From a virus (Duplodnaviria; Caudoviricetes), in the IMG/VR virus record IMGVR_UViG_3300027861_000043, positions 1 to 50,356 of that record: a stretch of DNA of 50,356 bases; one strand, 5' to 3'. Under the pieces are notes generated by a model. It had not been told where the DNA came from, searched no databases, and was given only the letters and a program-made list of their open reading frames with translations. The translations under genes were made by a program, and so were the position numbers. This document shows, in pieces, positions 3,047 through 17,481 of the stretch (positions are counted from its first letter, which is position 1; the number at the start of each line of letters is the position of its first letter).

Positions 3047-4546
3047 ATGAAAAATCCATTAGATGCTGTCATTAATTTCTTCTCCCCGCAAGCCGGTTTG
3101 ATTCGAGCTAAATCAAGAATGCAATTAGAAAATGCAGAGAGAAGCTATGACATCGCAAGTAAGAGCCGAAGAAACTCAGGTTGGTTTAGACCGGAAACTT
3201 CAGGCGCACAGGAGGCTTCCACAGCGTTCCGATTAGCAGCCAACACAGGACACGAATTAGTTAGAAATAATCCACTAGCCAAGCGAGCAAGAAACGTATG
3301 GGCGAGTAATGTTGTGGGTGGCGGTATTCAGTTGGAAGCAACTGGAATTTCTGATGCTAAATCGAAAAAGTTTAATGAAGCATGGGATGAATGGGCTGAA
3401 TCAACGGACATCGATTTTGAAGGTCATCATACGCTTTATGGGCTTCAGGATTTGTGGATGAAGACGGTTGTTGAAACCGGTGGTGTTTTCATTAGAAATC
3501 ACGTTAATAAAAGTAAGAAATTCCCGCTTCAATTACAGACCATTGAGCAGACATTTTTAGACAACTCTAAGAATGGAATAACAGAGAACGGAACACTGAT
3601 TGACGGTATCGAATATGATGCTCAAGGGCAGGTTCGAGGTTACTGGTTAAAATCCGAAGAAACTCACACGAAATTAGGTAAACCACCTAAGTCTAAATTC
3701 CACAAATCTTCTAAGATGATTCACATTTTTAGAAAAGACCGAGCAGGACAGCATTTAGGTATTACTTGGTTTCATGCAGTCGCTACTACGCTAAGAAATT
3801 ATAATACTTATCAAGATGCAAAATTGATGCAACAACAGATTGCGGCGTGTTTCGCATTGATTGTTGAAGAAGCTGAAACAGGGATGGGAGCGAATACCAC
3901 ATCAAGTGATTTACCCGACGAGATTCAACCGGCGATGGTTGAATATGTTAAGGCCGGTCAGAAAGTAACAACGGTAACTCCCCCTAAAGCTGACAACAGT
4001 AATAATTTTGATATCGCTATTAAAAGGGATATCGCTTCAGGATTAGATTTGACTTACGAGCAGTTGACAGGTGATTACTCGCTTGTCAATTTTGCATCAG
4101 GTCGAATGGGTAAATCAGAATTCTTCAACCAGTTAGATAATGTTCAGAAGAATTTAATGAAACCGGCGCTCGATAAGATTTTCCGATGGTTCTTAGATTT
4201 ATATGGAATCGGTAATGGAGTCAATGGCACATTCAAAGCTGACTGGACATTCCCACCAAGAGCTGCGGTAAATCCCCAAGAAGAATTCGATGTACTGATG
4301 AGCAAAGTTCGTCACGGAATGATGTCACCTACTAAGGCGGCTAAGATTCTCGGTGAGCGATTACCTCATATTATTGAGCAATGGAAAAAGGATAAGAAAT
4401 TATTCGGTGAGCTTCCATTCGACATTGACCCTTCTAAATTTGCTTCGACAGGAAATCAATTAGATGATAATGATGCAGCGAGTGGAAATAAAAAAGAAGA
4501 TTCTAAGAAAGAAGAAACCAAACCTAAAAAGAAAGAGGAAGAATAA
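3047..4546 (+). CDS. portal protein, lambda family
   Basis: LVRNNP, VVG.GI, GIEYD..G...GYW, IH.F...RAGQ..G, YEQLTGDYS.VNFASGR motifs. Confidence 0.95.
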   Translation: MKNPLDAVINFFSPQAGLIRAKSRMQLENAERSYDIASKSRRNSGWFRPETSGAQEASTAFRLAANTGHELVRNNPLAKRARNVWASNVVGGGIQLEATGISDAKSKKFNEAWDEWAESTDIDFEGHHTLYGLQDLWMKTVVETGGVFIRNHVNKSKKFPLQLQTIEQTFLDNSKNGITENGTLIDGIEYDAQGQVRGYWLKSEETHTKLGKPPKSKFHKSSKMIHIFRKDRAGQHLGITWFHAVATTLRNYNTYQDAKLMQQQIAACFALIVEEAETGMGANTTSSDLPDEIQPAMVEYVKAGQKVTTVTPPKADNSNNFDIAIKRDIASGLDLTYEQLTGDYSLVNFASGRMGKSEFFNQLDNVQKNLMKPALDKIFRWFLDLYGIGNGVNGTFKADWTFPPRAAVNPQEEFDVLMSKVRHGMMSPTKAAKILGERLPHIIEQWKKDKKLFGELPFDIDPSKFASTGNQLDDNDAASGNKKEDSKKEETKPKKKEEE

Positions 4547-4547
4547 T

Positions 4548-4976
4548 ATGAGTCGTGCGAAGTATGAGATACGAGGAACAGACAAGCATGGTTCAGGAGC
4601 CTATGGTGCATCAAGAGGTTCGAGAACACATAAAGGTGTAGATTTAATCACACTCAAAGACGAAATGATAGGTTCGTTCTGTTGTGGGGTAGTTACAAAA
4701 ATAGGCTATCCATATAATCCGATTAAACACCCTAATAAGGGTCATTTCCGATATGTTCAGGTGACAGATGTAGATGGGATAGCTGTACGTTCTTTTTATC
4801 TGAATCCACTAGTGGAAGTTGGTGATTTAGTGGAAGTTGGGAGTATAATAGGTCAAAGTCAAGATTTACTTGAAGTTTACGAAGGGATGACGCAACATAT
4901 TCATGTTGAAATAAAAAAGCAGGGTGAGTTTTTAAACCCTGTTGAATATTTGAGAAATAAACAATTTATCAATTAA
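4548..4976 (+). CDS. M23-family zinc peptidase (LECT2-like), probable endolysin
   Basis: HKGVD (HxxxD), HIH (HxH), NP..YL C-terminus; start moved from 4464 to ATG 4548 (GAGGA RBS, follows portal stop); heads the lysis cassette. Confidence 0.85.
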   Translation: MSRAKYEIRGTDKHGSGAYGASRGSRTHKGVDLITLKDEMIGSFCCGVVTKIGYPYNPIKHPNKGHFRYVQVTDVDGIAVRSFYLNPLVEVGDLVEVGSIIGQSQDLLEVYEGMTQHIHVEIKKQGEFLNPVEYLRNKQFIN

Positions 4977-4992
4977 CCGTTAGGAGAATATA

Positions 4993-5094
4993 ATGTTTCA
5001 TAAAATTGCAGGTGGAAACGGTAAGACTAAACCACCTAAAAAAACCGATTCAGCTAAAAACGTGAAGAAAACTAAAAAAACTTCACGAAAATAA
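4993..5094 (+). CDS. 33-aa basic peptide (not in ORF track)
   Basis: AGGAG RBS at 4982-4986; MFHKIAGGNGKTKPPKKTDSAKNVKKTKKTSRK; fills the gap between endolysin and membrane protein genes. Confidence 0.7.
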   Translation: MFHKIAGGNGKTKPPKKTDSAKNVKKTKKTSRK

Positions 5095-5103
5095 TCTCAA
5101 GTT

Positions 5104-5562
5104 ATGATTACAGCAATACTTATAACTTTAATTGGGGTATTATGTTTCACTAGAAGTAGTGAGAACAAGTATTCAATCATGGTTTTTGCCTCACTATGTT
5201 GGGTTTTTCAAGTCATTGGAAAATACATACCTGCTGAACATGGGGCATTTTATTATTTAGGTGCTGGAATAACAGATGTTTTAATAATTAAACTCTTGTG
5301 TAAAGTAAGGAAAGTAACACAATTAATTATAGACATACAAACAATATCCTTAATGTTCGTTTTTATCAATCTAATCGGATGGGTAATTTTTGAAGAAGGA
5401 TATAAATCAACACTTTATGATGCGGCCTGTAGTTCGCTATTTATAGTAACGATATTTGTTATATTAGATAAGGGAAGGAAAAATGAATTGGGAATCACTT
5501 CAGATGATTGCGGTGGGAATTTCTTTCGTCGCAGCAATCATTCAGGCAATTTTGGGCTGTAG
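5104..5562 (+). CDS. multi-pass (about 5 TM) membrane protein in lysis cassette
   Basis: about five hydrophobic segments, polar C-terminal tail. Confidence 0.75.
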   Translation: MITAILITLIGVLCFTRSSENKYSIMVFASLCWVFQVIGKYIPAEHGAFYYLGAGITDVLIIKLLCKVRKVTQLIIDIQTISLMFVFINLIGWVIFEEGYKSTLYDAACSSLFIVTIFVILDKGRKNELGITSDDCGGNFFRRSNHSGNFGL

Positions 5563-5588: not shown

Positions 5589-5852
5589 ATGAACTCATTG
5601 AAGCAAGTCGCAACAAACCTATTGCAAGAACCGAAAATAGCAGCAGCGGCGGCGACTAGTGTCGCAACAGCAGGTACAGGAGTTGCAACAGAATTAGCAT
5701 GGATTCCAGCAAATATAGGATGGGTGGCAAGCTTAATTGGAGCTATTGCAACAATAATTATTGTGACTCTATCAATTAAGAAGCACAGGTTAGAATATCG
5801 ATTGCTTAAAAATCGTTTAAAAATGCAAGAAAAACAACTTTTAGATGAGTAA
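5589..5852 (+). CDS. holin-like membrane protein
   Basis: AGGAG RBS at 5576-5580 favours ATG 5589; 1-2 TM segments then charged C-tail. Confidence 0.6.
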   Translation: MNSLKQVATNLLQEPKIAAAAATSVATAGTGVATELAWIPANIGWVASLIGAIATIIIVTLSIKKHRLEYRLLKNRLKMQEKQLLDE

Positions 5853-6090
5853 TATGAAAACTTCAATGCATATTAAATTTAAACAATATAGAGTGATATA
5901 TGTTGTTGTTACAGTGTTTTTCCTTTGGTTAGGGTATGATGCTTGGGAGTGGTTTAAAACTAATTCTGGTGGATTATCTCAGGCAGCCGCCGCAGGATTC
6001 ATATCGATTTACTTAGCAGTAATTGGCGCACTGAAATACATTCTTGAAAACCTACGTCAAGACAGTGAACATGATAAGGAAGACTTGTGA
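5845..6090 (+). CDS. holin-like 2-TM protein
   Basis: two TM segments, charged C-tail, directly upstream of spanins. Confidence 0.6.
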   Translation: MSNMKTSMHIKFKQYRVIYVVVTVFFLWLGYDAWEWFKTNSGGLSQAAAAGFISIYLAVIGALKYILENLRQDSEHDKEDL

Positions 6091-6569
6091 TAAGTACTAT
6101 TTTAGAATTTCTAGGGTTGGTTAAAAAGCTTTTTACCGGAGATTATGCCAAATATGGTGTTTATGCAGTTTTTATAATGTCCCTTTTAATAGGGGTGTGG
6201 TGGGTAACAGATAAATATGGCGATATGAAAGCTTTAGCAGTAGAACAAAAGGCACTTATCAATGTGCTGACAACTTCTAATGTTGAAGCGCAATTAGCAT
6301 TATCGAAAGTCATCGAAGAAAGAGATAGTCAGCGTAAATCGTATGATACCGCTCTGGCTAATCGTTCAGTTTTAGAATCAAGACTTGCATCTACAGTGAA
6401 GGAGAAAGACGATGCCCTTAAAGTATTTGAAAAAGAGTGTGGGCGCATCGAACGGCTCATGCAAAAGAAAGCGAGTCTTATTGTTCGCTATGCTAATCGT
6501 GCTACTAACAGGTTGCATGACGACTTCAGAGAAGCCACGCGAAGTGATTCGGACAGTGACAGTAACTGA
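6087..6569 (+). CDS. inner-membrane spanin (Rz-like)
   Basis: N-terminal TM then long coiled coil; overlaps a lipoprotein gene in another frame. Confidence 0.8.
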   Translation: MISTILEFLGLVKKLFTGDYAKYGVYAVFIMSLLIGVWWVTDKYGDMKALAVEQKALINVLTTSNVEAQLALSKVIEERDSQRKSYDTALANRSVLESRLASTVKEKDDALKVFEKECGRIERLMQKKASLIVRYANRATNRLHDDFREATRSDSDSDSN

Positions 6570-6795
6570 GAAGCAAGTCATTGTATGTCCTGATGCTCCT
6601 GAGTTAGTTTCTCCTGTATGGAAAGAAGTCATATTGGTGGTTGCTACTGCTGAAGATGGAATCAAGATATTCGGGCTTACTGAATCTCAATACAGAAATT
6701 TATCCATTAATACGCAGAATTCTTTAAAATCCATCAAAGATAGAAATGCAGTAATTGCATATTACCGTCAATGTATGGCTGACCATAACAAATGA
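6412..6795 (+). CDS. outer-membrane spanin (Rz1-like lipoprotein)
   Basis: basic n-region, hydrophobic h-region, lipobox LLTGC; CPDAP; C-terminal YYRQC; overlaps i-spanin. Confidence 0.8.
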   Translation: MPLKYLKKSVGASNGSCKRKRVLLFAMLIVLLTGCMTTSEKPREVIRTVTVTEKQVIVCPDAPELVSPVWKEVILVVATAEDGIKIFGLTESQYRNLSINTQNSLKSIKDRNAVIAYYRQCMADHNK

Positions 6796-7700
6796 TAAGT
6801 CACCCTAATACTACTTACCTTGTTTTACCTAATGCGGTAAATGACACCATTGATTCTAGGGACTCTTTAGTGTCTTCTGCTTGGCGTGTCGAAAACATAG
6901 TATTAGGTGTTAAATTTAATCTTGGGACCGGAACTAACACCTCTGATGTCGGTTATAACCCTTTCACTAAACGATTTGGATTCATTCGGAATAATTTTGG
7001 AACTGTTTCTGAAATAGCCGAAGCAGATATTGTCAATAGTGTTACTCAACCACCTATCATTAGAACAATAACACTTAATGGAATGTTCGGTGATGACTCA
7101 GAAGGATTGTCTGATGTTTTTCCTAACCTTCTCGAAGGAGGTTATGAGTTTTGGTCATGTATAGAAAACGGTGGAAGAACTTACGGGTATAATTTTCAAA
7201 TAACAGAATCCGAGATGTTCAGCGTTAGTGATATATCACTAACTGCACGTAGACAATTACAATTCGACCAGAATGCGGCTGATACAAACTTAGCAGGAGA
7301 GGGGATAGATTACAGCATAAAAGGTAACGAACTCCTGATGGTTAGAGAAGGTGGTCAACCAACTACTACTAAGAAAGTATATCTTGCATCAAGACCGACC
7401 GATAGAGATACTGATTATTCATATTCAGATGCTGAATTTAATCCGTCGAATCCCTTTGATGGTGAGAATGTAACCGGAGACTTATCTAGTTGTGCATTCC
7501 ATGAAGCTACTGGGCATTTATTGATTTTATCTGATACTGGAAATGCTGTTTATCAATATGACAGAAGTGGCACATTAATCTCCACATTAAGTCTTGGTGG
7601 ATTATTATTTCAACCTGAAGGTATTTGTATGCATGGTGACAACCTAGTAATAATGGGTGAAACCGATGAGTGCGCTTACTGTATTTACGTGGCTCCATAA
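6792..7700 (+). CDS. SdiA-regulated/YjiK-like beta-propeller protein
   Basis: repeated blades with DSEGL, GEGI, DLSS..F...TGHLLILSD, QPEGI motifs. Confidence 0.7.
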   Translation: MISHPNTTYLVLPNAVNDTIDSRDSLVSSAWRVENIVLGVKFNLGTGTNTSDVGYNPFTKRFGFIRNNFGTVSEIAEADIVNSVTQPPIIRTITLNGMFGDDSEGLSDVFPNLLEGGYEFWSCIENGGRTYGYNFQITESEMFSVSDISLTARRQLQFDQNAADTNLAGEGIDYSIKGNELLMVREGGQPTTTKKVYLASRPTDRDTDYSYSDAEFNPSNPFDGENVTGDLSSCAFHEATGHLLILSDTGNAVYQYDRSGTLISTLSLGGLLFQPEGICMHGDNLVIMGETDECAYCIYVAP

Positions 7701-7702
7701 AA

Positions 7703-10135
7703 ATGACTATTGAATTTGATGCAATATCATCGACATTAAATAATCAGTCTACACCGATTACTGTTTCACACACTGCGATAGGAATACCCGCTGCTGCGTG
7801 TGTTCAAATTATTGAGTCTGGAACAGCGTCAGATGATATTGACACAGTTACTTATGGTGGTATTACATTAAATCATATTGGAAGTTCTCCATTTTTAGGT
7901 ACAAATAATGAAGGTGGAACAATCCATCTCTATTTCTTAGGTAGTGGAGTACCGACTGGACAACAAGACGCAGTAATTACTCCCACATCTAGTGGTGGTC
8001 GCTCATGTAGTGTAATGACTCTGACAGCAGATGGAGATGTGGAAGTAAATACATCTTCAATGTTACTTGATACTAGCTCAATAACTAGTCCTAGTGTTTC
8101 TTTTGACATCGGTGGAGTTTCATCATTTGTCTATCAAGTATTCTATGGTGGTACAAGCGCGGTAACCGGAGTAACACCTTTAAATGATTGGACAGAGAGA
8201 TTAGAAGCTGATTTAAGTTCAAGTGTTGCAGGTGTCTACACCTATAATACTGTTGGCACAGTAAATATGAATTGTGGTTGGACCGGTCCGAATGATAACG
8301 CATTTATAACTTCAGTGGCTTTGACTGATGCAGCACCTCCGGTTGGTGTTAATATAACTAGTGTTAGTGATGGAACAGTTGAAATCGGAGAGTCTGGAAT
8401 CACTATTTCTGGAAATAGTTTTGAGGCAACTACCGGAGTTTTCATTATTAGTCCGACTGATGACATTAATGACTCTAGGGCGGTCATAGTAGTCACTAAT
8501 AGTTGGAACAATACTACTATAACTGCTGATATACCTTCAGATTTTTCAATGCTGTATGGCACTAGATATGCTTTTGTAATAACTGATAGTCTGGAAGAAA
8601 ATGCAGCAGGTAAAGGGTTCAGTTTAATACCTCCTGCGGGTAATGATTATGTAGTCATTAAGGCTCAGAACCAACTCGGAGTATTGAAAGGGGTAACTGA
8701 TGTAGAAATAGGAGAAGACCAGATAGAATACTCCACTACCACTTCAGGCGGTGGTGATGTGTACATGAGTGTTTCAGGATATTATCGTATCGATTTTACC
8801 GGAACTGCTCCTGTTTCTGACACTATGAACATACGGCTTGGAGACTCTAACACTCAGTCGTGGACAAGAGATTCTGCTGAATCATATTATATGGGACCAC
8901 CTGTTGCAGTTGGTGACTATCCTTCTACTATTGCCGCGCTTGGTCCAAATCATAGTTGGGCTTTTGATGGTGATGTTAATGACAGTGTAGGTTCTGCAAA
9001 TGGAACTAATGTTGGGTGCATATTAACCGATGGCCCATTGTGTAGAGATACAACAAACAGTCTAACAACGAACACAACAACAGATAGAGTTTCCATTCCA
9101 ACTACCGCTGATATAAATAATTCTGCACAAACAAGGAAGATTATCGCAGGATGGTTTATGGCGAATAATATTAATGCTCCACCTAAAAGAATTTATGGAG
9201 AAGGGACTAATGTAACTGCATTTCAGTTTGTTTGTGCCTACGGTAATAATTTAATGTTTGAATGTGTTGAAGCAAGTTTCAATGTTCAAGTTTACGGTCT
9301 TGCGGCTATACCTAATCGAATCTATCATCTGTGCGGAGTATTTGAAGGAAGTGGTTTCGGAAACACTGTAGATTTTTATGTTGATGGGGTAATACAATCA
9401 GCAGCTTCGCCAGAAAACAGACAACCAAATAGTGTAGATTTAGATGCTAGAGGGGTTGGTGAATTTGGTGACCCCGCAGGGACAGTTGGTGTTGGTGGAG
9501 ATGTAGTTTTATTGGGCGCTCCTACAAACGGAAGATATAACCGATGGAATAGTTGGAATGGCGTTTCTCTTACTCCAACTCAAATAAGAGAAGAATTATT
9601 TGAGAAAGGTGCAATACCAGATGTCACAGTGACAGACCAATTAAGTCTTGATGCATTAGCAAACACTGTTAGACCAAATGTTCCGCTTTGCATTTTTGTC
9701 GATGATACTGAAGATTTAACACTGACAGCAGATAACATTACTTTCGACCCATTGGCAAGTATCCACGTGCAATATGCAGGATTCGGAGTATTAACGTGGA
9801 TAAATACTAACGGCTCAAATGCAAGCATTGGTAGTACTCAAAATTCAGGAACCATTGTTTTTGAGAATCCTGTTTCCTTGACAATCAATGGGGTAATTGA
9901 TGGAGCAGAGATTAGAATTTATAATGATGAAATACCTGACGATAATCGATATAATACGGAACTTGGCGGGGTTGAATCAAACTCAGGAACGACTTTTGTT
10001 CTTTCCCATTCAGGGGAGTCTAATGATATAGTTATTCAAATGATTGCGAATGGTTATGAAGAATTAATACAGAATTTCGCCTTAGATTCAACTAATCAAA
10101 CAATAACTCTATTTCCTAATGTGGAGACAAATTAG
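7703..10135 (+). CDS. large virion-type protein: IPT/TIG-like + LamG (concanavalin A-like) + shared C-terminal domain
   Basis: ITISGNSF..SWNNTTIT, HSWAFDGD..D..G, YHLCGVF..FYVDG; paralog of next gene; start moved from 7670 to ATG 7703 after the upstream stop. Confidence 0.75.
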   Translation: MTIEFDAISSTLNNQSTPITVSHTAIGIPAAACVQIIESGTASDDIDTVTYGGITLNHIGSSPFLGTNNEGGTIHLYFLGSGVPTGQQDAVITPTSSGGRSCSVMTLTADGDVEVNTSSMLLDTSSITSPSVSFDIGGVSSFVYQVFYGGTSAVTGVTPLNDWTERLEADLSSSVAGVYTYNTVGTVNMNCGWTGPNDNAFITSVALTDAAPPVGVNITSVSDGTVEIGESGITISGNSFEATTGVFIISPTDDINDSRAVIVVTNSWNNTTITADIPSDFSMLYGTRYAFVITDSLEENAAGKGFSLIPPAGNDYVVIKAQNQLGVLKGVTDVEIGEDQIEYSTTTSGGGDVYMSVSGYYRIDFTGTAPVSDTMNIRLGDSNTQSWTRDSAESYYMGPPVAVGDYPSTIAALGPNHSWAFDGDVNDSVGSANGTNVGCILTDGPLCRDTTNSLTTNTTTDRVSIPTTADINNSAQTRKIIAGWFMANNINAPPKRIYGEGTNVTAFQFVCAYGNNLMFECVEASFNVQVYGLAAIPNRIYHLCGVFEGSGFGNTVDFYVDGVIQSAASPENRQPNSVDLDARGVGEFGDPAGTVGVGGDVVLLGAPTNGRYNRWNSWNGVSLTPTQIREELFEKGAIPDVTVTDQLSLDALANTVRPNVPLCIFVDDTEDLTLTADNITFDPLASIHVQYAGFGVLTWINTNGSNASIGSTQNSGTIVFENPVSLTINGVIDGAEIRIYNDEIPDDNRYNTELGGVESNSGTTFVLSHSGESNDIVIQMIANGYEELIQNFALDSTNQTITLFPNVETN

Positions 10136-12399
10136 TGGCTATTACATTTATTGATAGTGATGTTGTTGATTCTGCTGCTGCATTAAATATATCTTTTGCT
10201 ATTCCAGCGGGAGCTATAGCTGGTGATTTCATGATTGCGTTTGTTAAGCAATCAGAAAATACCAGTCAGCAAACTTGGGATGACGATGGTGGAGGCGGCA
10301 ACGGATGGATTCAGTTATATTATAATAGAACAACAGGTGGTCGTGACCAAGAAACCTCAATTTATTATAAAATTCATTCAGGTTCAGAATCAAATCCAAC
10401 ATTTACTTGGTGGGGTGGAGGTACAACTTCTGAGCCGATTTCAGGTTCATTGTTAGTCTATCGAGGTGTAGACACTGTAACTCCTATTGCAGATAGTAAT
10501 TTCATGGAGGCGCAGAATGATGCTAATCCACCTAATCCAAGTGTAACCATTGCGAAATCATCTAATGCTGTAGTTGTTTTTCATGCAGCCACGCATGATG
10601 ATATATCTGCTGTATCTCAACCTACCGGATATACCTTAAGGACTCAAGTTTGGAATGGGGTAAACGATGACCATCGAAATCATTTTACTGCGGATTTAAT
10701 TGGTGGGTTTTCTGTCGGTACTTATTCCCCCCCAGATTGGCAACATAGTGTGCTAAACACCACGCCGGAATATCACACTTATTCTATTGCAATACAAGAG
10801 CCATCACTGATTGGAATTTCATCTCCTGCAAGTTCATCGAAAATTAATTGGGGAGACAATGCGGTAGGGATAACAGGCTTTGGATTTGGAGCTGTTCAAA
10901 ATTCAGGAAAGGTAGAATTTTGGTCAGACACTATCGGAACTATTAAGCAGGTTCAAACTGTAAATTCTTGGGCAGATGGGTCAATTGAAATTGATACGGT
11001 TCAAGGCTCTCTCAGTAATGACACTTCTAACTATCTCGTTGTGACTAATGATAATGGCGATGTAACTACTACAGTAAGGATAATTTTCGGATTAATACCT
11101 TATCAAGACTTAGTTATCTCGCTGAGTCCTGACCATTTTTGGTCATTTAATGGTGATTATAATGATACGGGTGTAGGTGGAGCAATAAGGGATGCAACAA
11201 CCGGAGTGGTTGGAACTCACCCTTGGATTTCTAATATTGCAGAGGATGCCACTCAGTCGATGCAGTTTGATGACATTTTAGACCGCAGAGAAATTGTAGA
11301 TAGTCCATATATGAACGTGACCATTAGTGCTAAAGAAAGAACTATGGCAGGGTGGATTATGCTAGGGGGAGTTCAGAAATCAATGGCTGCAATATGGAAA
11401 GAAGGCGGGGGAGTTCAGAATTTAGCGTTTTTAACTGGATTAGGAAATGTTCTCCTTGCTCAACTTGCAGATGTTGCAGGTTCAAGGGATAATGTTCAGG
11501 CAATAGCTGAAATTAGATTAACTCCTTTTCGACCATATCATATTTGCCTTAGATATAGTCATCTTGAAACAACAAAAGAGATGAGACTGTATGTTGACGG
11601 TGAGGAACAGCCTTTATCCTTGACAGACGGAAATCCAATGGTTTTAGGAATCTTTGATTCTCATGGTGGAGATGTGACTTGGGGTAATAGTGATAATAAC
11701 TTAGAAATGGGTACGGTTGATGTTGCGTTTTCAGGGCAGGAAGATTGTGCATATCAACACTGGTGTTCTTGGTCTGACAATTCTCCCAATAGTGGAGCAT
11801 TAGAAAAAGTAACAGAAATAAGAGATGTGTTATTCAGAAGGGGAGCATTACCTAAGTACACGATAACTTCAGACACCGAAGTAAATATGCAAGCAGCCTT
11901 AGATGTGTTAGGGACTATTGAAGTTGAAGATTACCCTCTTGGAATAAGAGTTGAAGCACCATCTGGCGGTGCTAATTTAACACTTACTGCTACAGGTATT
12001 ACATTTAACCCCAGAACCACCATGCAATTAGAATGGAGAGGTGTAGGGCAATTAACCTACGTGGTTTCGTCAAATAGTGAACTAGATGAGAGTAAGCTTT
12101 ATTCTTCCGGTGGAGGGACTATAATCATTGAACGACCTGCTAGTTTAACCATAAATGGATTAATAGTTAATTCTGAAGTAAGGATATATGACGATGATGG
12201 AGTTTCTAACTCTTTTGGAACAGAACTAGATGGTGTAGAATCTAATCCAAGTAATGAGTATATCTATTCTCATGCTGGTATAATTAATGGTATCATAGTT
12301 CAAATTATGGTAGACGGGTATGTAGAAATTAAAATTCCTTTGGTTTTAGGAAGTACCGACCAGACACTAACAATAACTCCTGTAGTGGAAGAAAACTAA
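10135..12399 (+). CDS. large virion-type protein: IPT/TIG-like + LamG + shared C-terminal domain
   Basis: GTG start overlapping upstream stop; ITGFGFG..SWADGSIEI, HFWSFNGD, YHICLRY..LYVDG; C-terminal ~170 aa aligns with upstream paralog. Confidence 0.75.
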   Translation: MAITFIDSDVVDSAAALNISFAIPAGAIAGDFMIAFVKQSENTSQQTWDDDGGGGNGWIQLYYNRTTGGRDQETSIYYKIHSGSESNPTFTWWGGGTTSEPISGSLLVYRGVDTVTPIADSNFMEAQNDANPPNPSVTIAKSSNAVVVFHAATHDDISAVSQPTGYTLRTQVWNGVNDDHRNHFTADLIGGFSVGTYSPPDWQHSVLNTTPEYHTYSIAIQEPSLIGISSPASSSKINWGDNAVGITGFGFGAVQNSGKVEFWSDTIGTIKQVQTVNSWADGSIEIDTVQGSLSNDTSNYLVVTNDNGDVTTTVRIIFGLIPYQDLVISLSPDHFWSFNGDYNDTGVGGAIRDATTGVVGTHPWISNIAEDATQSMQFDDILDRREIVDSPYMNVTISAKERTMAGWIMLGGVQKSMAAIWKEGGGVQNLAFLTGLGNVLLAQLADVAGSRDNVQAIAEIRLTPFRPYHICLRYSHLETTKEMRLYVDGEEQPLSLTDGNPMVLGIFDSHGGDVTWGNSDNNLEMGTVDVAFSGQEDCAYQHWCSWSDNSPNSGALEKVTEIRDVLFRRGALPKYTITSDTEVNMQAALDVLGTIEVEDYPLGIRVEAPSGGANLTLTATGITFNPRTTMQLEWRGVGQLTYVVSSNSELDESKLYSSGGGTIIIERPASLTINGLIVNSEVRIYDDDGVSNSFGTELDGVESNPSNEYIYSHAGIINGIIVQIMVDGYVEIKIPLVLGSTDQTLTITPVVEEN

Positions 12400-12400
12400 T

Positions 12401-12736
12401 ATGAAAGATTTAATAGAATTACAAAATTGTAATATGCACCAACTTACTTCTAATGCAGGTAAATCAGATTGGCAAATTCGGGAAAACATTACAGATAATA
12501 TATTAGATGTTTTACCTAACACCATATCTGATAGAGATATTTTTGCAATCGTTAAGTTTGCAAGGAAATTTGAACTGAAAGCATTTAATGTAGGTATTGA
12601 TTTCGGTAAGAAGAAAGGAACTGCACCATTGCATGATGAAATACGTTATTTAAAAGAACAGCTTGCAGCATCTATTGAACATAGCGATAAACTTGCAAAT
12701 AAACTTGAAGAATTATTAATTAATGATGAGGTATAA
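12401..12736 (+). CDS. hypothetical protein with C-terminal coiled coil
   Basis: 111-aa ORF tightly packed in the operon. Confidence 0.7.
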   Translation: MKDLIELQNCNMHQLTSNAGKSDWQIRENITDNILDVLPNTISDRDIFAIVKFARKFELKAFNVGIDFGKKKGTAPLHDEIRYLKEQLAASIEHSDKLANKLEELLINDEV

Positions 12737-12739
12737 AAA

Positions 12740-14218
12740 ATGTCTATTATAGATTTATCGAATTACGCTACAAGCTTAGTTCAAAGCAGTCAAGGTCGCT
12801 CGGGTACTCCTGACGGTAATATTTTCTTCAATACTGCTAGTGGTCTTTGGGAGGCAATCACAGTCGAAGAATTAGCAACTATCGATTTAACTAGTGTAGG
12901 CGGTGGAGCATCTGACCCTAATCCACTGTCTCAACAGGACGGAATTAAACTTGAAGCAGCTTATGCTTTTGAAAATCAAGAACGTGCCTCAGATGAAGTA
13001 CTTCGTGGATTTGATAGATTTATTAAGGGTTCGTTTAAGTTCGCGGGAGCATATAATTTTGTAAACTCTCGTAAGCCTTCTACTCAAGCAGATAGAGACA
13101 TCTTACGTGGTTCTGGATGGTCAGAGCTTGCAAGTGATGGTGGTACTGATAGAATTTATTTTGGTGCAAAAGGACTGTCAAATATCGAACCTGCTTCTCA
13201 GCCATATAACCAATTATCTGCTGGTGGCGCTCCTACTGATTTCGCTAAAGCGGGTCAATTTGATGAAGCCGTTCAAGTGTTCGGTTCAACTGCAAATACC
13301 CCTACTGATTCAGGAGCTGGTGATTTCGATACAAGAGACTATATGGCTGTATCGGTGAGAACTTTTGGTCAAAATTATGACCGGAAAGAAACTACTACTG
13401 ATTTAGGTATCGCAGAACTAGGCGGGTATTCAACAGGTTTCGCAGTAAATGAGTCACCGCATAATACTTCGGGTAATTATATCCTTGCTGATGTTTATGG
13501 GGGTTCGCAGATTTCTCCTTGGACTTCGATGGGACTTGAAGAATTAGATAGTCCTCAGTCTGAATCAGGGTTCAATGAAGTTGATGGAAACTTTACTTGG
13601 GTTTTAAATAACAGCAGTAGCGGAACACTTGATGAATGTGTTGCTTTCTTAGATGCTTTATCACAAACAGATGATGATATTAATGACCATGCTAGTAATA
13701 CAACTAATGGTAAGCGTGTTGGTACGTTCTATAGTTATAATGGTGCAGGTCAAGTTGTATTCGATAGTCCATTTTCAGGTCAAGGACTGTTTGTTGAACA
13801 AGTTCCAGTAGCAGATGAACAACGATGTGTATTCACTGATGATGCGTCAGGAGTTAAAACTAGACCGTTCTCCGTTGCCTTAGAAGCGACCCTTGGTTCA
13901 GTGGCTAAAGCAGATGTTAATGCTTGGTATCATTGCTTCTTCGCTGCTGCATACAATACTGGTGGTGCAGTAACTGTTCGGAATTCTTCGGCAGGAGATA
14001 TTAAAGGTCTTGCTAGTACTTCTGATGGAAACAATAAAATCATTGAATCGTTTGATTATGATGGTGATACTGTTGGTGGAAGCGCAGGAACAGATAAAGA
14101 TTGTGTTTTTCTGTGTGAAGGTGATGGTGGTGCTACTCAAGCTAAGACTTTGTTTACTATATCCAGAACGACCACAGTTGCTTTCTCTTGCTCCCCTGCT
14201 GCTGAAACCAATGTTTAA
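12740..14218 (+). CDS. putative structural protein (acidic, G/S/T/D-rich)
   Basis: GAGG RBS, beta-rich virion-like composition, ends PAAETNV. Confidence 0.7.
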   Translation: MSIIDLSNYATSLVQSSQGRSGTPDGNIFFNTASGLWEAITVEELATIDLTSVGGGASDPNPLSQQDGIKLEAAYAFENQERASDEVLRGFDRFIKGSFKFAGAYNFVNSRKPSTQADRDILRGSGWSELASDGGTDRIYFGAKGLSNIEPASQPYNQLSAGGAPTDFAKAGQFDEAVQVFGSTANTPTDSGAGDFDTRDYMAVSVRTFGQNYDRKETTTDLGIAELGGYSTGFAVNESPHNTSGNYILADVYGGSQISPWTSMGLEELDSPQSESGFNEVDGNFTWVLNNSSSGTLDECVAFLDALSQTDDDINDHASNTTNGKRVGTFYSYNGAGQVVFDSPFSGQGLFVEQVPVADEQRCVFTDDASGVKTRPFSVALEATLGSVAKADVNAWYHCFFAAAYNTGGAVTVRNSSAGDIKGLASTSDGNNKIIESFDYDGDTVGGSAGTDKDCVFLCEGDGGATQAKTLFTISRTTTVAFSCSPAAETNV

Positions 14219-14220
14219 TC

Positions 14221-14784
14221 GTGACAATAATAGCTAACATAGACGGTGCTACCCGTAGAGTGTTCCTACATCAAGATACTGTAGGAACATCTTTGCACCC
14301 AATTGACATCTATCATGAGATGCGTTCATTACGTGCCTCGGATGAAACTTTGCGATATTGGGATTTATATATGAAAGCAGACGGTAATGTATCGAAAGGT
14401 GGAGGAAAATTCACTGAAAGATATGTTACCTTGCTTGATGGAACTAGAATTGTTCCATACGATTCTAGTCAAAACTTGACTATTACAGGTACAATAATAA
14501 CCGACGATGGGCAAGAAGGTCCGGCAGCTTTTGATAAGTCATTACTTTCTCCAACAACCTCAGTGGATATAACTTATGTTCCACCTCAAGTTGAAGTAAT
14601 TGAAGTGTTAATTGCGGGAGGATTATCACCGGAGCAAGCAACAATGTTATCTGAGCTATGGAAGATAGCAGGATTAGATGTTGATAATCCTTTGACAATA
14701 AGTCAAGTTAGCAAGGTTGTAGACACAGTTAATTTATTATTCTCAGGAGATGGTGAAAACAATTTGACTGTGACGAGGCAATAA
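14221..14784 (+). CDS. putative structural protein
   Basis: GTG start, beta-rich N-terminal domain, EQA.ML.ELWKIAGLD..NPLT segment. Confidence 0.65.
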   Translation: MTIIANIDGATRRVFLHQDTVGTSLHPIDIYHEMRSLRASDETLRYWDLYMKADGNVSKGGGKFTERYVTLLDGTRIVPYDSSQNLTITGTIITDDGQEGPAAFDKSLLSPTTSVDITYVPPQVEVIEVLIAGGLSPEQATMLSELWKIAGLDVDNPLTISQVSKVVDTVNLLFSGDGENNLTVTRQ

Positions 14785-14990
14785 TGGACCTTTTAGCGAT
14801 TGCAACAGAAGGATATTTAACTAAGCCTAGTGGTGGAGTTGGAGAAGACCGGACATTCTATAGTCCGTTTGAAAGCGCGATAACTGAAAATATGTCAAGT
14901 AAAATTGTTGAAACATTATCAAGTAATGTTTCCGGTAATCAATTAAGTTCAGGCATTAAAACTTACGCAAAATCACAGGTGACAAAATGA
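14784..14990 (+). CDS. hypothetical protein
   Basis: translationally coupled (TAATG) 68-aa ORF. Confidence 0.6.
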   Translation: MDLLAIATEGYLTKPSGGVGEDRTFYSPFESAITENMSSKIVETLSSNVSGNQLSSGIKTYAKSQVTK

Positions 14991-15361
14991 GCAAACCAGA
15001 AATAACAACAGGTGACGATGCGGTACTAATGCACGAACTGACTAAATATGACAAAGACCTGAAGCAACAGGTGACTTTTAATATTCCTGATACGGCTACT
15101 GTGAAGACTAGAATTATAGCAGCCGACCACAGCGAAGCTTATAGCGAATCAGTGGTTCAGTCTGACCTAACTGCGGGTGCGGATTGGCCTAATTCACTAG
15201 TTGCAGTAGTACTTGATTCAACCATCACATCTGAGATTTTAAGCAAGTCAGTGTTGTGGAAGAATGGCAGAGTAAATGCTAAAATTGAAACTCAAGTTGA
15301 CGATGGAGGCAAAACCACATGGTTTGCAAGCGTTGTCATGATTAAAGGCTTGGTTGAATGA
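14987..15361 (+). CDS. hypothetical beta-sandwich protein (possible adaptor)
   Basis: ATGA-coupled; last gene of the insert before the capsid promoter. Confidence 0.6.
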   Translation: MSKPEITTGDDAVLMHELTKYDKDLKQQVTFNIPDTATVKTRIIAADHSEAYSESVVQSDLTAGADWPNSLVAVVLDSTITSEILSKSVLWKNGRVNAKIETQVDDGGKTTWFASVVMIKGLVE

Positions 15362-15417: not shown

Positions 15418-17481
15418 ATGTTCATACGAAAAGCGGCAATACCAAATACGAGAGTTCAAGGCAGCTTTCGACCTGAGACTGTTAATCTGGAAGAAAGAAC
15501 TATGGAGATAGTTTTTACTACTGGACAAAGCGGTAGACGTTATGATTTTTATAATGACGTAGAATACCTTGAAGAATTAGAAGTTACCCCTGACGCGGTT
15601 CGTACAGACCGATTAGACAAAGGATTATCAGTTATTGATAATCATGATACCTTTAGAGGTGTCGATGGAGTTTTCGGAATTACTGAAGATTATCGATTTG
15701 AAAACGGTACATTAATCGGTACTGCTCGTTTCGGTGCTGATGAAGATTCAGATAAAAAATTCACTAAAGCAGCCGATGGTATTTTACGACACGTATCACT
15801 CGGTTACAAAGTCCACAAATTTCAAAAATTTAGAGGAATGAATGGAGACTTAGATACCTATCGAGCAGTCGATTGGGAACCTACTGAATTGTCATTCACA
15901 CCTGTATCTTTTGAAACAACTAACGGTGTTCGTGCTGAACAACGTAAATTAAACGATGTCGAAATAGAGGAATTTATCATGACACCAGAACAATTAGCTC
16001 GATTACGAGCATTACAGGGTTCAGCAACTAGAACGGCTGACGAAGATAAGGAGTTGATTAAACTTCTTGAAATGCAAACTAGGGCTGCTGCTCCTGTTAT
16101 TGACCCTACACCGGCTCCTGCTGCTCCTGTAGCTCGCGCTATCGAACCTGTTCCTGCTCCTGTAGTTCCGAGCATTAATGTTGCTGACGTTCGTAGTTCC
16201 GAACGTGGTCAGCTCAGTCCTATGATTGAAGCTGCTCAAAAAGCAGGTATTCAACAGGATTTTGCAATTCGAGCTTTCAATGAAGGTAAATCAATTGATG
16301 AGTTCCGAACTATGGTTATTGATGAGTTAGGAAACAAAGACAGCACTCAGATTGTATCTGTTGCGGGTACGGCTTTGAATTCCGACGAACGTGCTGACCA
16401 AAAAGAAACTCTCATCAATGATGCAGTTTCTTCGTTGTTACATCGAACTGGTAGCAATATCGAACTGACTAACGGTATTCGTCAGTTTAGCGGGATGACA
16501 CTACTCGATATGGGTCGTGATTTCGTTGAAGCATCTGGTATTAATACTCGTGGTATGTCGAGACAAGCGATTGCTCAACGTGCTTTCCATACGACTTCTG
16601 ATTTCCCTGTTATTCTTGAGAATGTAATGAACAAGAATTTACAATCAGCGTATCAAGAAACACCGCAAACTTTTAAAGACTTAGGTCGTAGAAGTACTGT
16701 GAATGATTTCAGAGAGAAACACGTTATATCAATGGGTGATGCTCCAAATCTACTTCCTTTAGGTGAACATGGCGAATACAAAGCCGGTACGTTCGGTGAA
16801 GGTAAAGAAAAGTACAGCATTGCTACTTACGCTCGTAAGATTGGAGTGACACGTGAGTCATTAATTAACGATGATATGTCTGCTCTTGACCGTCTACCTG
16901 CAATGTTTGGTGCAGCCGGTTCACGCCTTGAGTCGAATATTGTTTGGGGATTATTGCTTGGGTTTGATTTCTTTAAAAACATTCCTGCTGTTCATTTAAT
17001 GAATGATGGTAAAACATTATATCATGCTGACCACGGTAATCTTTTAACCGGCGGCGGTTCGGTGTTTGGTGAAACTGCACTTTCTGATTTGAGAATGTTA
17101 GGCCGACAAGCTAAAACTCTTGATGGCAACTACATGAACATTAATTTCAACAATCTAGTTCTTCCTTACGAGTTAGAAACTGCTGCTGAAAAACTTCTTG
17201 TTCAGAACTTCAATCCTGTTACTTCTGCAACCACTAACCCATTCCAAGGCAAATTCCAGTCTCGCGTTGAACCACGTTTGAGTGCTGTAAGTACAACTGC
17301 TTGGTATGCGTTCTCTAATGAAGCTGATACTTTCGAGTATAGCTACTTAGCGGGCGAAGAAGAAATGATGACTGAGGTCAACACACATACTGATGTCGAT
17401 GGAATGGAAGTTAAAGTCCGTAAAGACTTCGGTGCAGGTTTAATTGATTATCGCGCAATGGCTAAGTCTGACGGTGCATAA
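15418..17481 (+). CDS. prohead protease-major capsid protein fusion (HK97-type protease + linker/scaffold + capsid)
   Basis: IDNH, GILRHVSLGY, WEPTELS protease motifs; Pro/Ala linker; TTSDFP, DFR, GEYK.G, INDD capsid motifs. Confidence 0.92.
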   Translation: MFIRKAAIPNTRVQGSFRPETVNLEERTMEIVFTTGQSGRRYDFYNDVEYLEELEVTPDAVRTDRLDKGLSVIDNHDTFRGVDGVFGITEDYRFENGTLIGTARFGADEDSDKKFTKAADGILRHVSLGYKVHKFQKFRGMNGDLDTYRAVDWEPTELSFTPVSFETTNGVRAEQRKLNDVEIEEFIMTPEQLARLRALQGSATRTADEDKELIKLLEMQTRAAAPVIDPTPAPAAPVARAIEPVPAPVVPSINVADVRSSERGQLSPMIEAAQKAGIQQDFAIRAFNEGKSIDEFRTMVIDELGNKDSTQIVSVAGTALNSDERADQKETLINDAVSSLLHRTGSNIELTNGIRQFSGMTLLDMGRDFVEASGINTRGMSRQAIAQRAFHTTSDFPVILENVMNKNLQSAYQETPQTFKDLGRRSTVNDFREKHVISMGDAPNLLPLGEHGEYKAGTFGEGKEKYSIATYARKIGVTRESLINDDMSALDRLPAMFGAAGSRLESNIVWGLLLGFDFFKNIPAVHLMNDGKTLYHADHGNLLTGGGSVFGETALSDLRMLGRQAKTLDGNYMNINFNNLVLPYELETAAEKLLVQNFNPVTSATTNPFQGKFQSRVEPRLSAVSTTAWYAFSNEADTFEYSYLAGEEEMMTEVNTHTDVDGMEVKVRKDFGAGLIDYRAMAKSDGA

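Follow-up and report, generated by a model that had tools for sequence, protein, structure and literature searches.

A LECT2-type M23 zinc protein as candidate endolysin of an uncultivated marine siphovirus

M23 enzymes rank among the chief sources of engineered antibacterial lysins, and the standard account of their mechanism has two catalytic histidines. The cytokine LECT2 has been connected with sepsis, liver disease and amyloidosis, and we know of no purpose for its M23 fold. A small protein encoded just after the portal gene of an uncultivated phage resembles LECT2 and carries a tyrosine where M23 peptidases have one of their two catalytic histidines, which raises the question of what such a protein does for a phage. 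The window analysed here comprises 50,356 nucleotides and is the whole of the IMG/VR virus record IMGVR_UViG_3300027861_000043 (completeness rating 100%). We put the probability at about 0.68 that the gene at 4548–4976 encodes the endolysin of this complete, uncultivated marine siphovirus. Support for the LECT2-type endolysin reading is drawn only from sequence, structure prediction and gene context.

The order and identity of the genes are those of a siphovirus. Genes for the small and large terminase are followed by the portal gene, and a protease-capsid fusion, a decoration protein, neck proteins, a major tail protein, a tape measure protein and a replication module are also present. Terminase, portal and capsid are 51–62% identical to their counterparts in Shewanella phage 1/44, which points to a marine gammaproteobacterium as the host. 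The prohead protease and the major capsid protein share one 687-aa ORF (15418–17481, + strand; phrog_4523), as in the annotation of Shewanella phage 1/44. In that phage the gene after the portal (L001, 10737–11219) encodes 160 aa that end in a hydrophobic segment and lack an M23 domain, so the slot behind the portal varies among related phages. Between the spanins and the capsid gene, the window carries an 8.6-kb block (6792–15361, + strand) of seven ORFs (302, 821, 754, 111, 492, 187 and 124 aa) with no PHROG match; Pfam assigns the first ORF an SdiA-regulated beta-propeller-like domain (E 3.8e-12) and otherwise gives only one sub-cut-off match, PRAI, at 14221–14784. The block looks like inserted cargo, since the portal-capsid gap in Shewanella phage 1/44 is only ∼2 kb.

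The portal gene ends with a TAA at 4544–4546, and the M23 gene starts 1 nt downstream. Its longest ORF opens at 4464, within the portal gene. We prefer ATG 4548 as the probable start because of the GAGGA motif and the portal stop that precede it and because all 31 relatives in alignment A1 start 3–24 residues ahead of the conserved arginine of the N-terminal loop. The resulting product (Table 1) has no signal peptide or hydrophobic N terminus. Its sole cysteines are Cys44 and Cys45, and a C-x4-C pair is absent. Pfam Peptidase_M23 (PF01551) matches with an E-value of 1.4e-7 (32 bits; the cut-off is 28.7), PHROGs returns weak matches only, led by the 'metallo-endopeptidase' family phrog_7767 (E 3.5e-8), and three family members gave no NCBIfam match above a cut-off. 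AlphaFold, run on an alignment of 32 relatives, yields a model with a pLDDT of 96.2 and a pTM of 0.89. The protein is a member of the M23 fold, and the two zinc motifs by which a review defines M23, H(x)nD and HxH, are present as His28-x3-Asp32 and His117-x-His119.

Table 1. Features of the M23 gene, its product and the neighbouring genes (nucleotide positions refer to the window, residue numbers to the 142-aa protein)
Feature	Position	Strand	Description
Shine-Dalgarno-like GAGGA	4535..4539	+	8 nt 5' of ATG 4548; sequence reading
LECT2-type M23 zinc protein, candidate endolysin	4548..4976	+	142 aa, single M23-fold domain, without hydrophobic segment
N-terminal loop residues	Arg9, Asp12, Gly15, Gly17, Ala21, Arg23		142-aa protein
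HxxxD motif	His28, Asp32		142-aa protein
Mid-protein key residues	Arg81, Tyr84		142-aa protein
HxHxE motif	His117, His119, Glu121		142-aa protein
Basic ORF	4993..5094	+	33 aa, one third Lys/Arg; own AGGAG upstream; between M23 gene and first membrane protein; gene status uncertain
Membrane protein, holin/antiholin candidate	5104..5562	+	152 aa, five hydrophobic segments; phrog_15451 (unknown function)
Membrane protein, holin candidate	5589..5852	+	87 aa, clear membrane segment; phrog_13707 (unknown function)
Holin candidate	5845..6090	+	81 aa; hydrophobic segment 49–67, weaker one ∼17–35 (hand reading)
i-spanin	6087..6569	+	N-terminal membrane segment and long charged periplasmic part; phrog_739, Rz-like, E 8.9e-6
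o-spanin	6412..6795	+	Lipoprotein, lipobox LLTGC; phrog_812, Rz-like, E 1.6e-8

The genes downstream suggest a lysis cassette: by context the protein would be an endolysin, a predicted wall-hydrolase fold that adjoins spanins recognized by PHROG matches and holin candidates recognized by topology. The two spanin genes overlap, the o-spanin being read in a different frame. A holin-annotated family is matched by none of the membrane proteins encoded between 5104 and 6090, and the 81-aa protein has no family match. For the phrog_13707 protein the listed ORF opens at TTG 5508; ATG 5589 is the likelier start, and the version that begins there spans the entire phrog_13707 match. An earlier note, made from the DNA letters alone, had placed the M23 gene 'beside holins and spanins'. 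The spanins are borne out by family matches, and the holins are candidates by membrane topology and position only. The same note saw in the protein the sole muralytic candidate of the genome, and in agreement with this, no other wall hydrolase is recognized by Pfam or PHROGs among 51 other ORFs scanned, seven of which, those in 6792–15361, gave no informative family match and might include a novel lysin.

Which M23 proteins does the candidate resemble most? A phmmer search of 177,635 distinct PDB sequences places human LECT2 (5b0h, 9non) at the top (E 1.4e-11, 47.8 bits, query residues 3–122) and SpoIIQ second (E 2.4e-4). With a profile made from 32 relatives, LECT2 reaches 81.7 bits (E 4.4e-22), any other solved M23 protein no more than 35.5 bits, and LytM and lysostaphin 22–27 bits. 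Foldseek ranks LECT2 (5B0H) first in the PDB (TM 0.77/0.82, r.m.s.d. 2.5, 28% identity), with lysostaphin, LytM, EnpA and EnvC as runners-up at TM 0.66–0.69; there are 52 PDB matches at E ≤ 0.001, and the listed ones are overwhelmingly M23/LytM-domain chains. In the ESM Atlas a chordate LECT2-like cluster is the third structural neighbour (TM 0.78). Because LECT2 tops the PDB sequence, profile and Foldseek rankings, the likeness is specific to LECT2 and goes beyond general M23 likeness; the close resemblance claimed in the earlier note is far above chance. All four phage strings quoted there are found in the translation of 4548–4976 (+ strand; residues 7–33, 81–87, 105–121 and 130–135), and the LECT2 strings given there match the PDB chain where aligned apart from one residue, a Val and not an Ile after 'GVD' (V40); the C-terminal 'DPTAYL' falls beyond the aligned stretches.

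The likeness extends to details of the domain. In LECT2 as in the phage protein, an R..D..G.G...A.R loop runs directly into HxGxD, an FY motif puts a tyrosine at the catalytic-histidine position, and a 'YPGI' stretch and HxHxE are present. The LECT2 zinc ion is held by His35, Asp39 and His120 (PMC8039541), and these residues align with His28, Asp32 and His119 of the phage protein. The phage protein has the features of a LECT2-type M23 subfamily, namely LECT2 as its closest characterised relative, the N-terminal loop and Tyr84; we found no curated model for such a subfamily. Human LECT2 departs from the phage protein at Gly24, Lys51, Gly53, Arg68, Tyr69, Arg81 (a lysine in LECT2) and Gln105, seven positions that are kept in 263–279 of 281 family members.

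Does the FY signature mark the loss of an active site or a different one? The alignments confirm that the signature, with its tyrosine at the place of the catalytic histidine, is common to LECT2 and the phage protein. The second catalytic histidine of M23, that of Y-x-H, is one that we take to be LytM His260. Tyr84 aligns with the histidine of Y-x-H in the active-type M23 chains 9gy1 and 9k2v and falls in the same SpoIIQ column; against LytM, tyrosine and histidine come to lie one column apart. We counted conservation after aligning 281 family members to the model of the family; one query had enriched this sample for the C-x4-C pair. Tyr84, His28, Asp32, Arg23 and Gly15 are present in all 281, His119 in 280, and His117 and Arg81 in 279 each; the N-terminal loop residues (R..D..G.G...A.R, residues 9–23) are invariant in alignment A1. 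A histidine at position 84 occurs in 0/281 relatives; the second catalytic histidine of M23 is missing from all of them.

This absence favours a lysis factor that is not a peptidase and that, after holin release, activates host amidases in the manner of EnvC and NlpD or just binds peptidoglycan. A review places M23 folds with an incomplete catalytic set, LECT2 included, among interaction proteins, and EnvC LytM domains are among the structural matches of the phage protein (TM 0.68). We nevertheless regard such a factor as unlikely. The zinc ligands His28, Asp32 and His119, together with His117, are invariant or nearly so, whereas non-catalytic members are described in the review as being without the full catalytic set and/or zinc. 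The strict conservation of Tyr84, Arg81, Arg23 and Asp12 suits an active site better than a docking surface, and no solved activator scores near the phage protein by sequence. Invariance of the zinc ligands, Tyr84, Arg81, Arg23 and Asp12 is typical of an enzyme and speaks for a functional active site.

The residue pattern is that of a large group of proteins. An exhaustive profile search over 1.84 billion representatives gave 8633 matches at E ≤ 0.001, of which 1642 reach ≤ 1e-10 and 217 reach ≤ 1e-30. The best 150 of the 8633 all score at least 131 bits, well above the score expected for LECT2; most are 126–170 aa long, and ∼15 are longer (178–488 aa), mostly with the domain at the C terminus. 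Longer proteins of 283–488 aa with a C-terminal LECT2-type domain include P0117, P0120, P0128, P0176 and the product of L046 (3350–4438). The ESM Atlas clusters nearest to the phage protein are labelled 69–100% viral; a further search of the atlas without M23 clusters returned unnamed clusters only. Source annotations for the family read only 'M23 family metallopeptidase' or 'MepM/NlpD'. The phage protein belongs to a large, mostly viral and generically named family. Word-indexed searches (32 of 36 and 48 of 50 candidates passed, plus the best 120 of 623 from 1055 candidates) held no row named LECT2; their rows were prokaryotic or viral-type family members only, in the largest search among the best 120 of 623. 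Precomputed tables attach the label PF26482 (DUF8155) to some relatives; six relatives tested, three of them so labelled, had no Pfam match to PF26482, and our literature search found no paper that names it.

Among 50,697 phage records, tblastn with the 142-aa protein matched two records of Salicola phage CGphi29 (44% identity) and a single faecal contig, and nothing else. The CGphi29 protein (L002, 4839–5402) is annotated as a 187-aa 'hypothetical protein' with a poly-Arg start far upstream of the conserved arginine; an internal Met ∼46 residues in would give a 141-aa form like the relatives, and the protein has the LECT2-like C-x4-C pair. The top BFVD match, a 187-aa unnamed viral protein (TM 0.89), is judging by its length presumably the same Salicola phage protein. 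In CGphi29, a cultured carrier of the family, a 62-aa membrane ORF comes next after the M23 gene, along with a 56-aa ORF with an Rz-like spanin match (E 5.9e-9).

We asked whether the linkage to lysis genes recurs among relatives. The 40 IMG/VR loci examined hold an intact gene in 37 cases (L029, L036 and L040 were dropped), which form 27 groups at 85% identity. A small same-strand membrane ORF lies within 1 kb of the M23 gene at 21 of the 27 loci, compared with 0/6 control anchors in a very small control, and it is absent at the other 6. The neighbour tally comprises 155 ORFs, of which the 123 on the same strand were scanned. The commonest neighbour family is the holin family phrog_3427 (6 of the 123 proteins), and the others include portal families (3, 3 and 1), terminases and Q-like antiterminators (2). 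At L035 relatives of the five-segment membrane protein (33% identity over 150 aa) and of the phrog_13707 protein adjoin the M23 gene in a different order, and for none of the TerL, portal and capsid proteins of the window could a match be detected at this locus. The phrog_13707 protein of L035 also matches the holin family phrog_4237 (E 6.5e-7), and phrog_13707 is for this reason probably holin-related. Seven loci in bacterial genomes have mixed contexts; at L046 the open frame with the match is 362 aa long, and at L047 the gene is isolated among opposite-strand ORFs. The scan that found them used one strict peptide pattern, so they say little about bacterial range.

The position of the gene also invites another reading, in which the protein is a virion- or head-associated wall hydrolase that serves entry and is encoded in the head module after the portal. 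The start 1 nt past the portal stop and the portal families beside relatives would fit this, and so would three of the six loci that have no membrane ORF within 1 kb (L010, L011 and L032), at which the gene is directly upstream of a ∼700-aa ORF; at L010 and L011 it is in addition downstream of a ∼480–500-aa ORF, and from ORF sizes only the three contexts may be head modules, so that the gene does not always occupy a typical lysis cassette. M23 domains do occur in phage tail and ejection proteins, according to the review and to 9k2v. Known virion M23 domains, however, sit in large proteins (9k2v has 1058 aa), and here the domain is a bare 142 aa. Membrane proteins and spanins follow directly downstream, the same linkage is seen on unrelated backbones, and a virion role would leave the genome without a recognisable endolysin. 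A function in entry is improbable on this evidence.

How would such an endolysin act? The bare M23 zinc protein would accumulate in the cytoplasm, as it has no signal or membrane segment. The holin, at least one of the three membrane proteins encoded downstream, would give it access to the wall, where the M23 protein would cut peptide cross-links of the peptidoglycan; we infer here the catalysis, the bond that is cut and the identity of the holin. The overlapping spanin pair would then disrupt the outer membrane. In the active site, zinc would be held by His28, Asp32 and His119, with His117 retained, and Tyr84 would replace the second catalytic histidine, for example in transition-state stabilisation. 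A literature search found no assayed member of the Tyr-type family, LECT2 being the only relative that has been studied.

The same residues have been regarded as defects in LECT2. According to a review, no mammalian protein other than LECT2 belongs to M23, and its fold is degenerate in that it is without the catalytic histidine, with an N-terminal loop that protrudes from the active centre; LECT2 is further described as being without a known peptidase substrate (PMC5504477). Seen beside the phage protein, these supposed defects look like standard equipment of a large family of phage lysis enzymes. A more far-reaching proposal is that the tyrosine for histidine, the N-terminal loop and in part the C-x4-C pair are the design of a large clade of active phage endolysins, and that an early animal acquired such a gene from a phage or bacterium, which gave rise to LECT2. 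We hold this to be possible and lean against it. LECT2 is not confined to vertebrates, since C. elegans has an orthologue, which has two tandem M23 domains (PMC5079751), and a transfer into animals would agree with the much greater diversity of the phage family compared with one animal gene family. A profile of the subset with the Cys pair scores LECT2 at 92.1 bits and one of the subset without it at 83.8 bits. We do not take this as a sign that LECT2 nests inside one phage subclade, the gap of ∼8 bits being about what two matched cysteines give by our own rough estimate. A full-text search turned up no publication that connects LECT2 with lysins of phages or bacteria, and a 2026 paper lists LECT2 among cytokine HMMs with bacterial hits. 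The earlier note had proposed an active Tyr-type clade in phages that may be related to the origin of animal LECT2. What stands of it is the LECT2 likeness, the tyrosine at the catalytic-histidine place, the lysis cassette and the spread of these features through the clade (sequence, Foldseek, 281 members); activity and origin are kept here as conditional.

Should the proposal be true, Tyr-type M23 catalysis would be a second, undescribed active-site solution in the family, and LECT2 may still recognise peptidoglycan fragments. A large phage clade with a tyrosine for one histidine that appears to do the job of an endolysin would widen the known chemistry, and it would supply small single-domain lysins for Gram-negative hosts. 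A horizontal origin and the binding of wall fragments could both be put to a direct test if LECT2 owes its odd features to phage-type wall enzymes.

The phage protein and LECT2 proper differ in their setting. LECT2 has a signal peptide and three disulfides and is a secreted animal ligand; the phage protein is without signal peptide or disulfide pair and is encoded in what appears to be a lysis cassette. The C-x4-C pair of LECT2 occurs in 57/281 relatives and not in the 142-aa protein, and worm LECT-2 has two tandem domains where the phage protein has one. These differences bear on a third alternative, a role that has nothing to do with the host wall, such as a cytokine-like action on a eukaryote or on other cells. 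It is suggested by the nearest characterised relative, which is a signalling protein. The missing signal peptide and Cys pair, the location in the lysis cassette of a marine phage, and the seven family-conserved positions at which human LECT2 differs make such a role very improbable.

The lysostaphin/LytM M23B endopeptidases have the same fold and the same zinc motifs, HxxxD and HxH, and they and the phage protein are both putative cutters of cell-wall peptides. They have the histidine of Y-x-H where the phage protein has tyrosine, and compared with them the phage protein has an extra conserved N-terminal loop and no wall-binding domain; sequences of the lysostaphin/LytM type score only 27–40 bits against the family profiles. 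EnvC and NlpD, catalytically inactive LytM factors which according to the review act through protein-protein interactions, share the M23 fold and an incomplete catalytic set with the phage protein; the review describes non-catalytic members as short of the full catalytic set and/or zinc, and in the family of the phage protein the zinc ligands are invariant. Two small phage M23 proteins have been tested in vitro, MMPphg from Meiothermus phage MMP17 and TSPphg from Thermus phage TSP4 (166 aa, M23 domain). Like the phage protein, they are candidate lysins for Gram-negative hosts, and tblastn with the 142-aa protein returned neither of them. MMPphg digests the host cell wall, is stimulated by zinc and retains Tyr161-x-His163, which makes it a His-type M23 protein (PMC7448439). 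For Leptospira prophages, too, a paper suggests that the endolysin is an M23 protein with holins and spanins as its neighbours.
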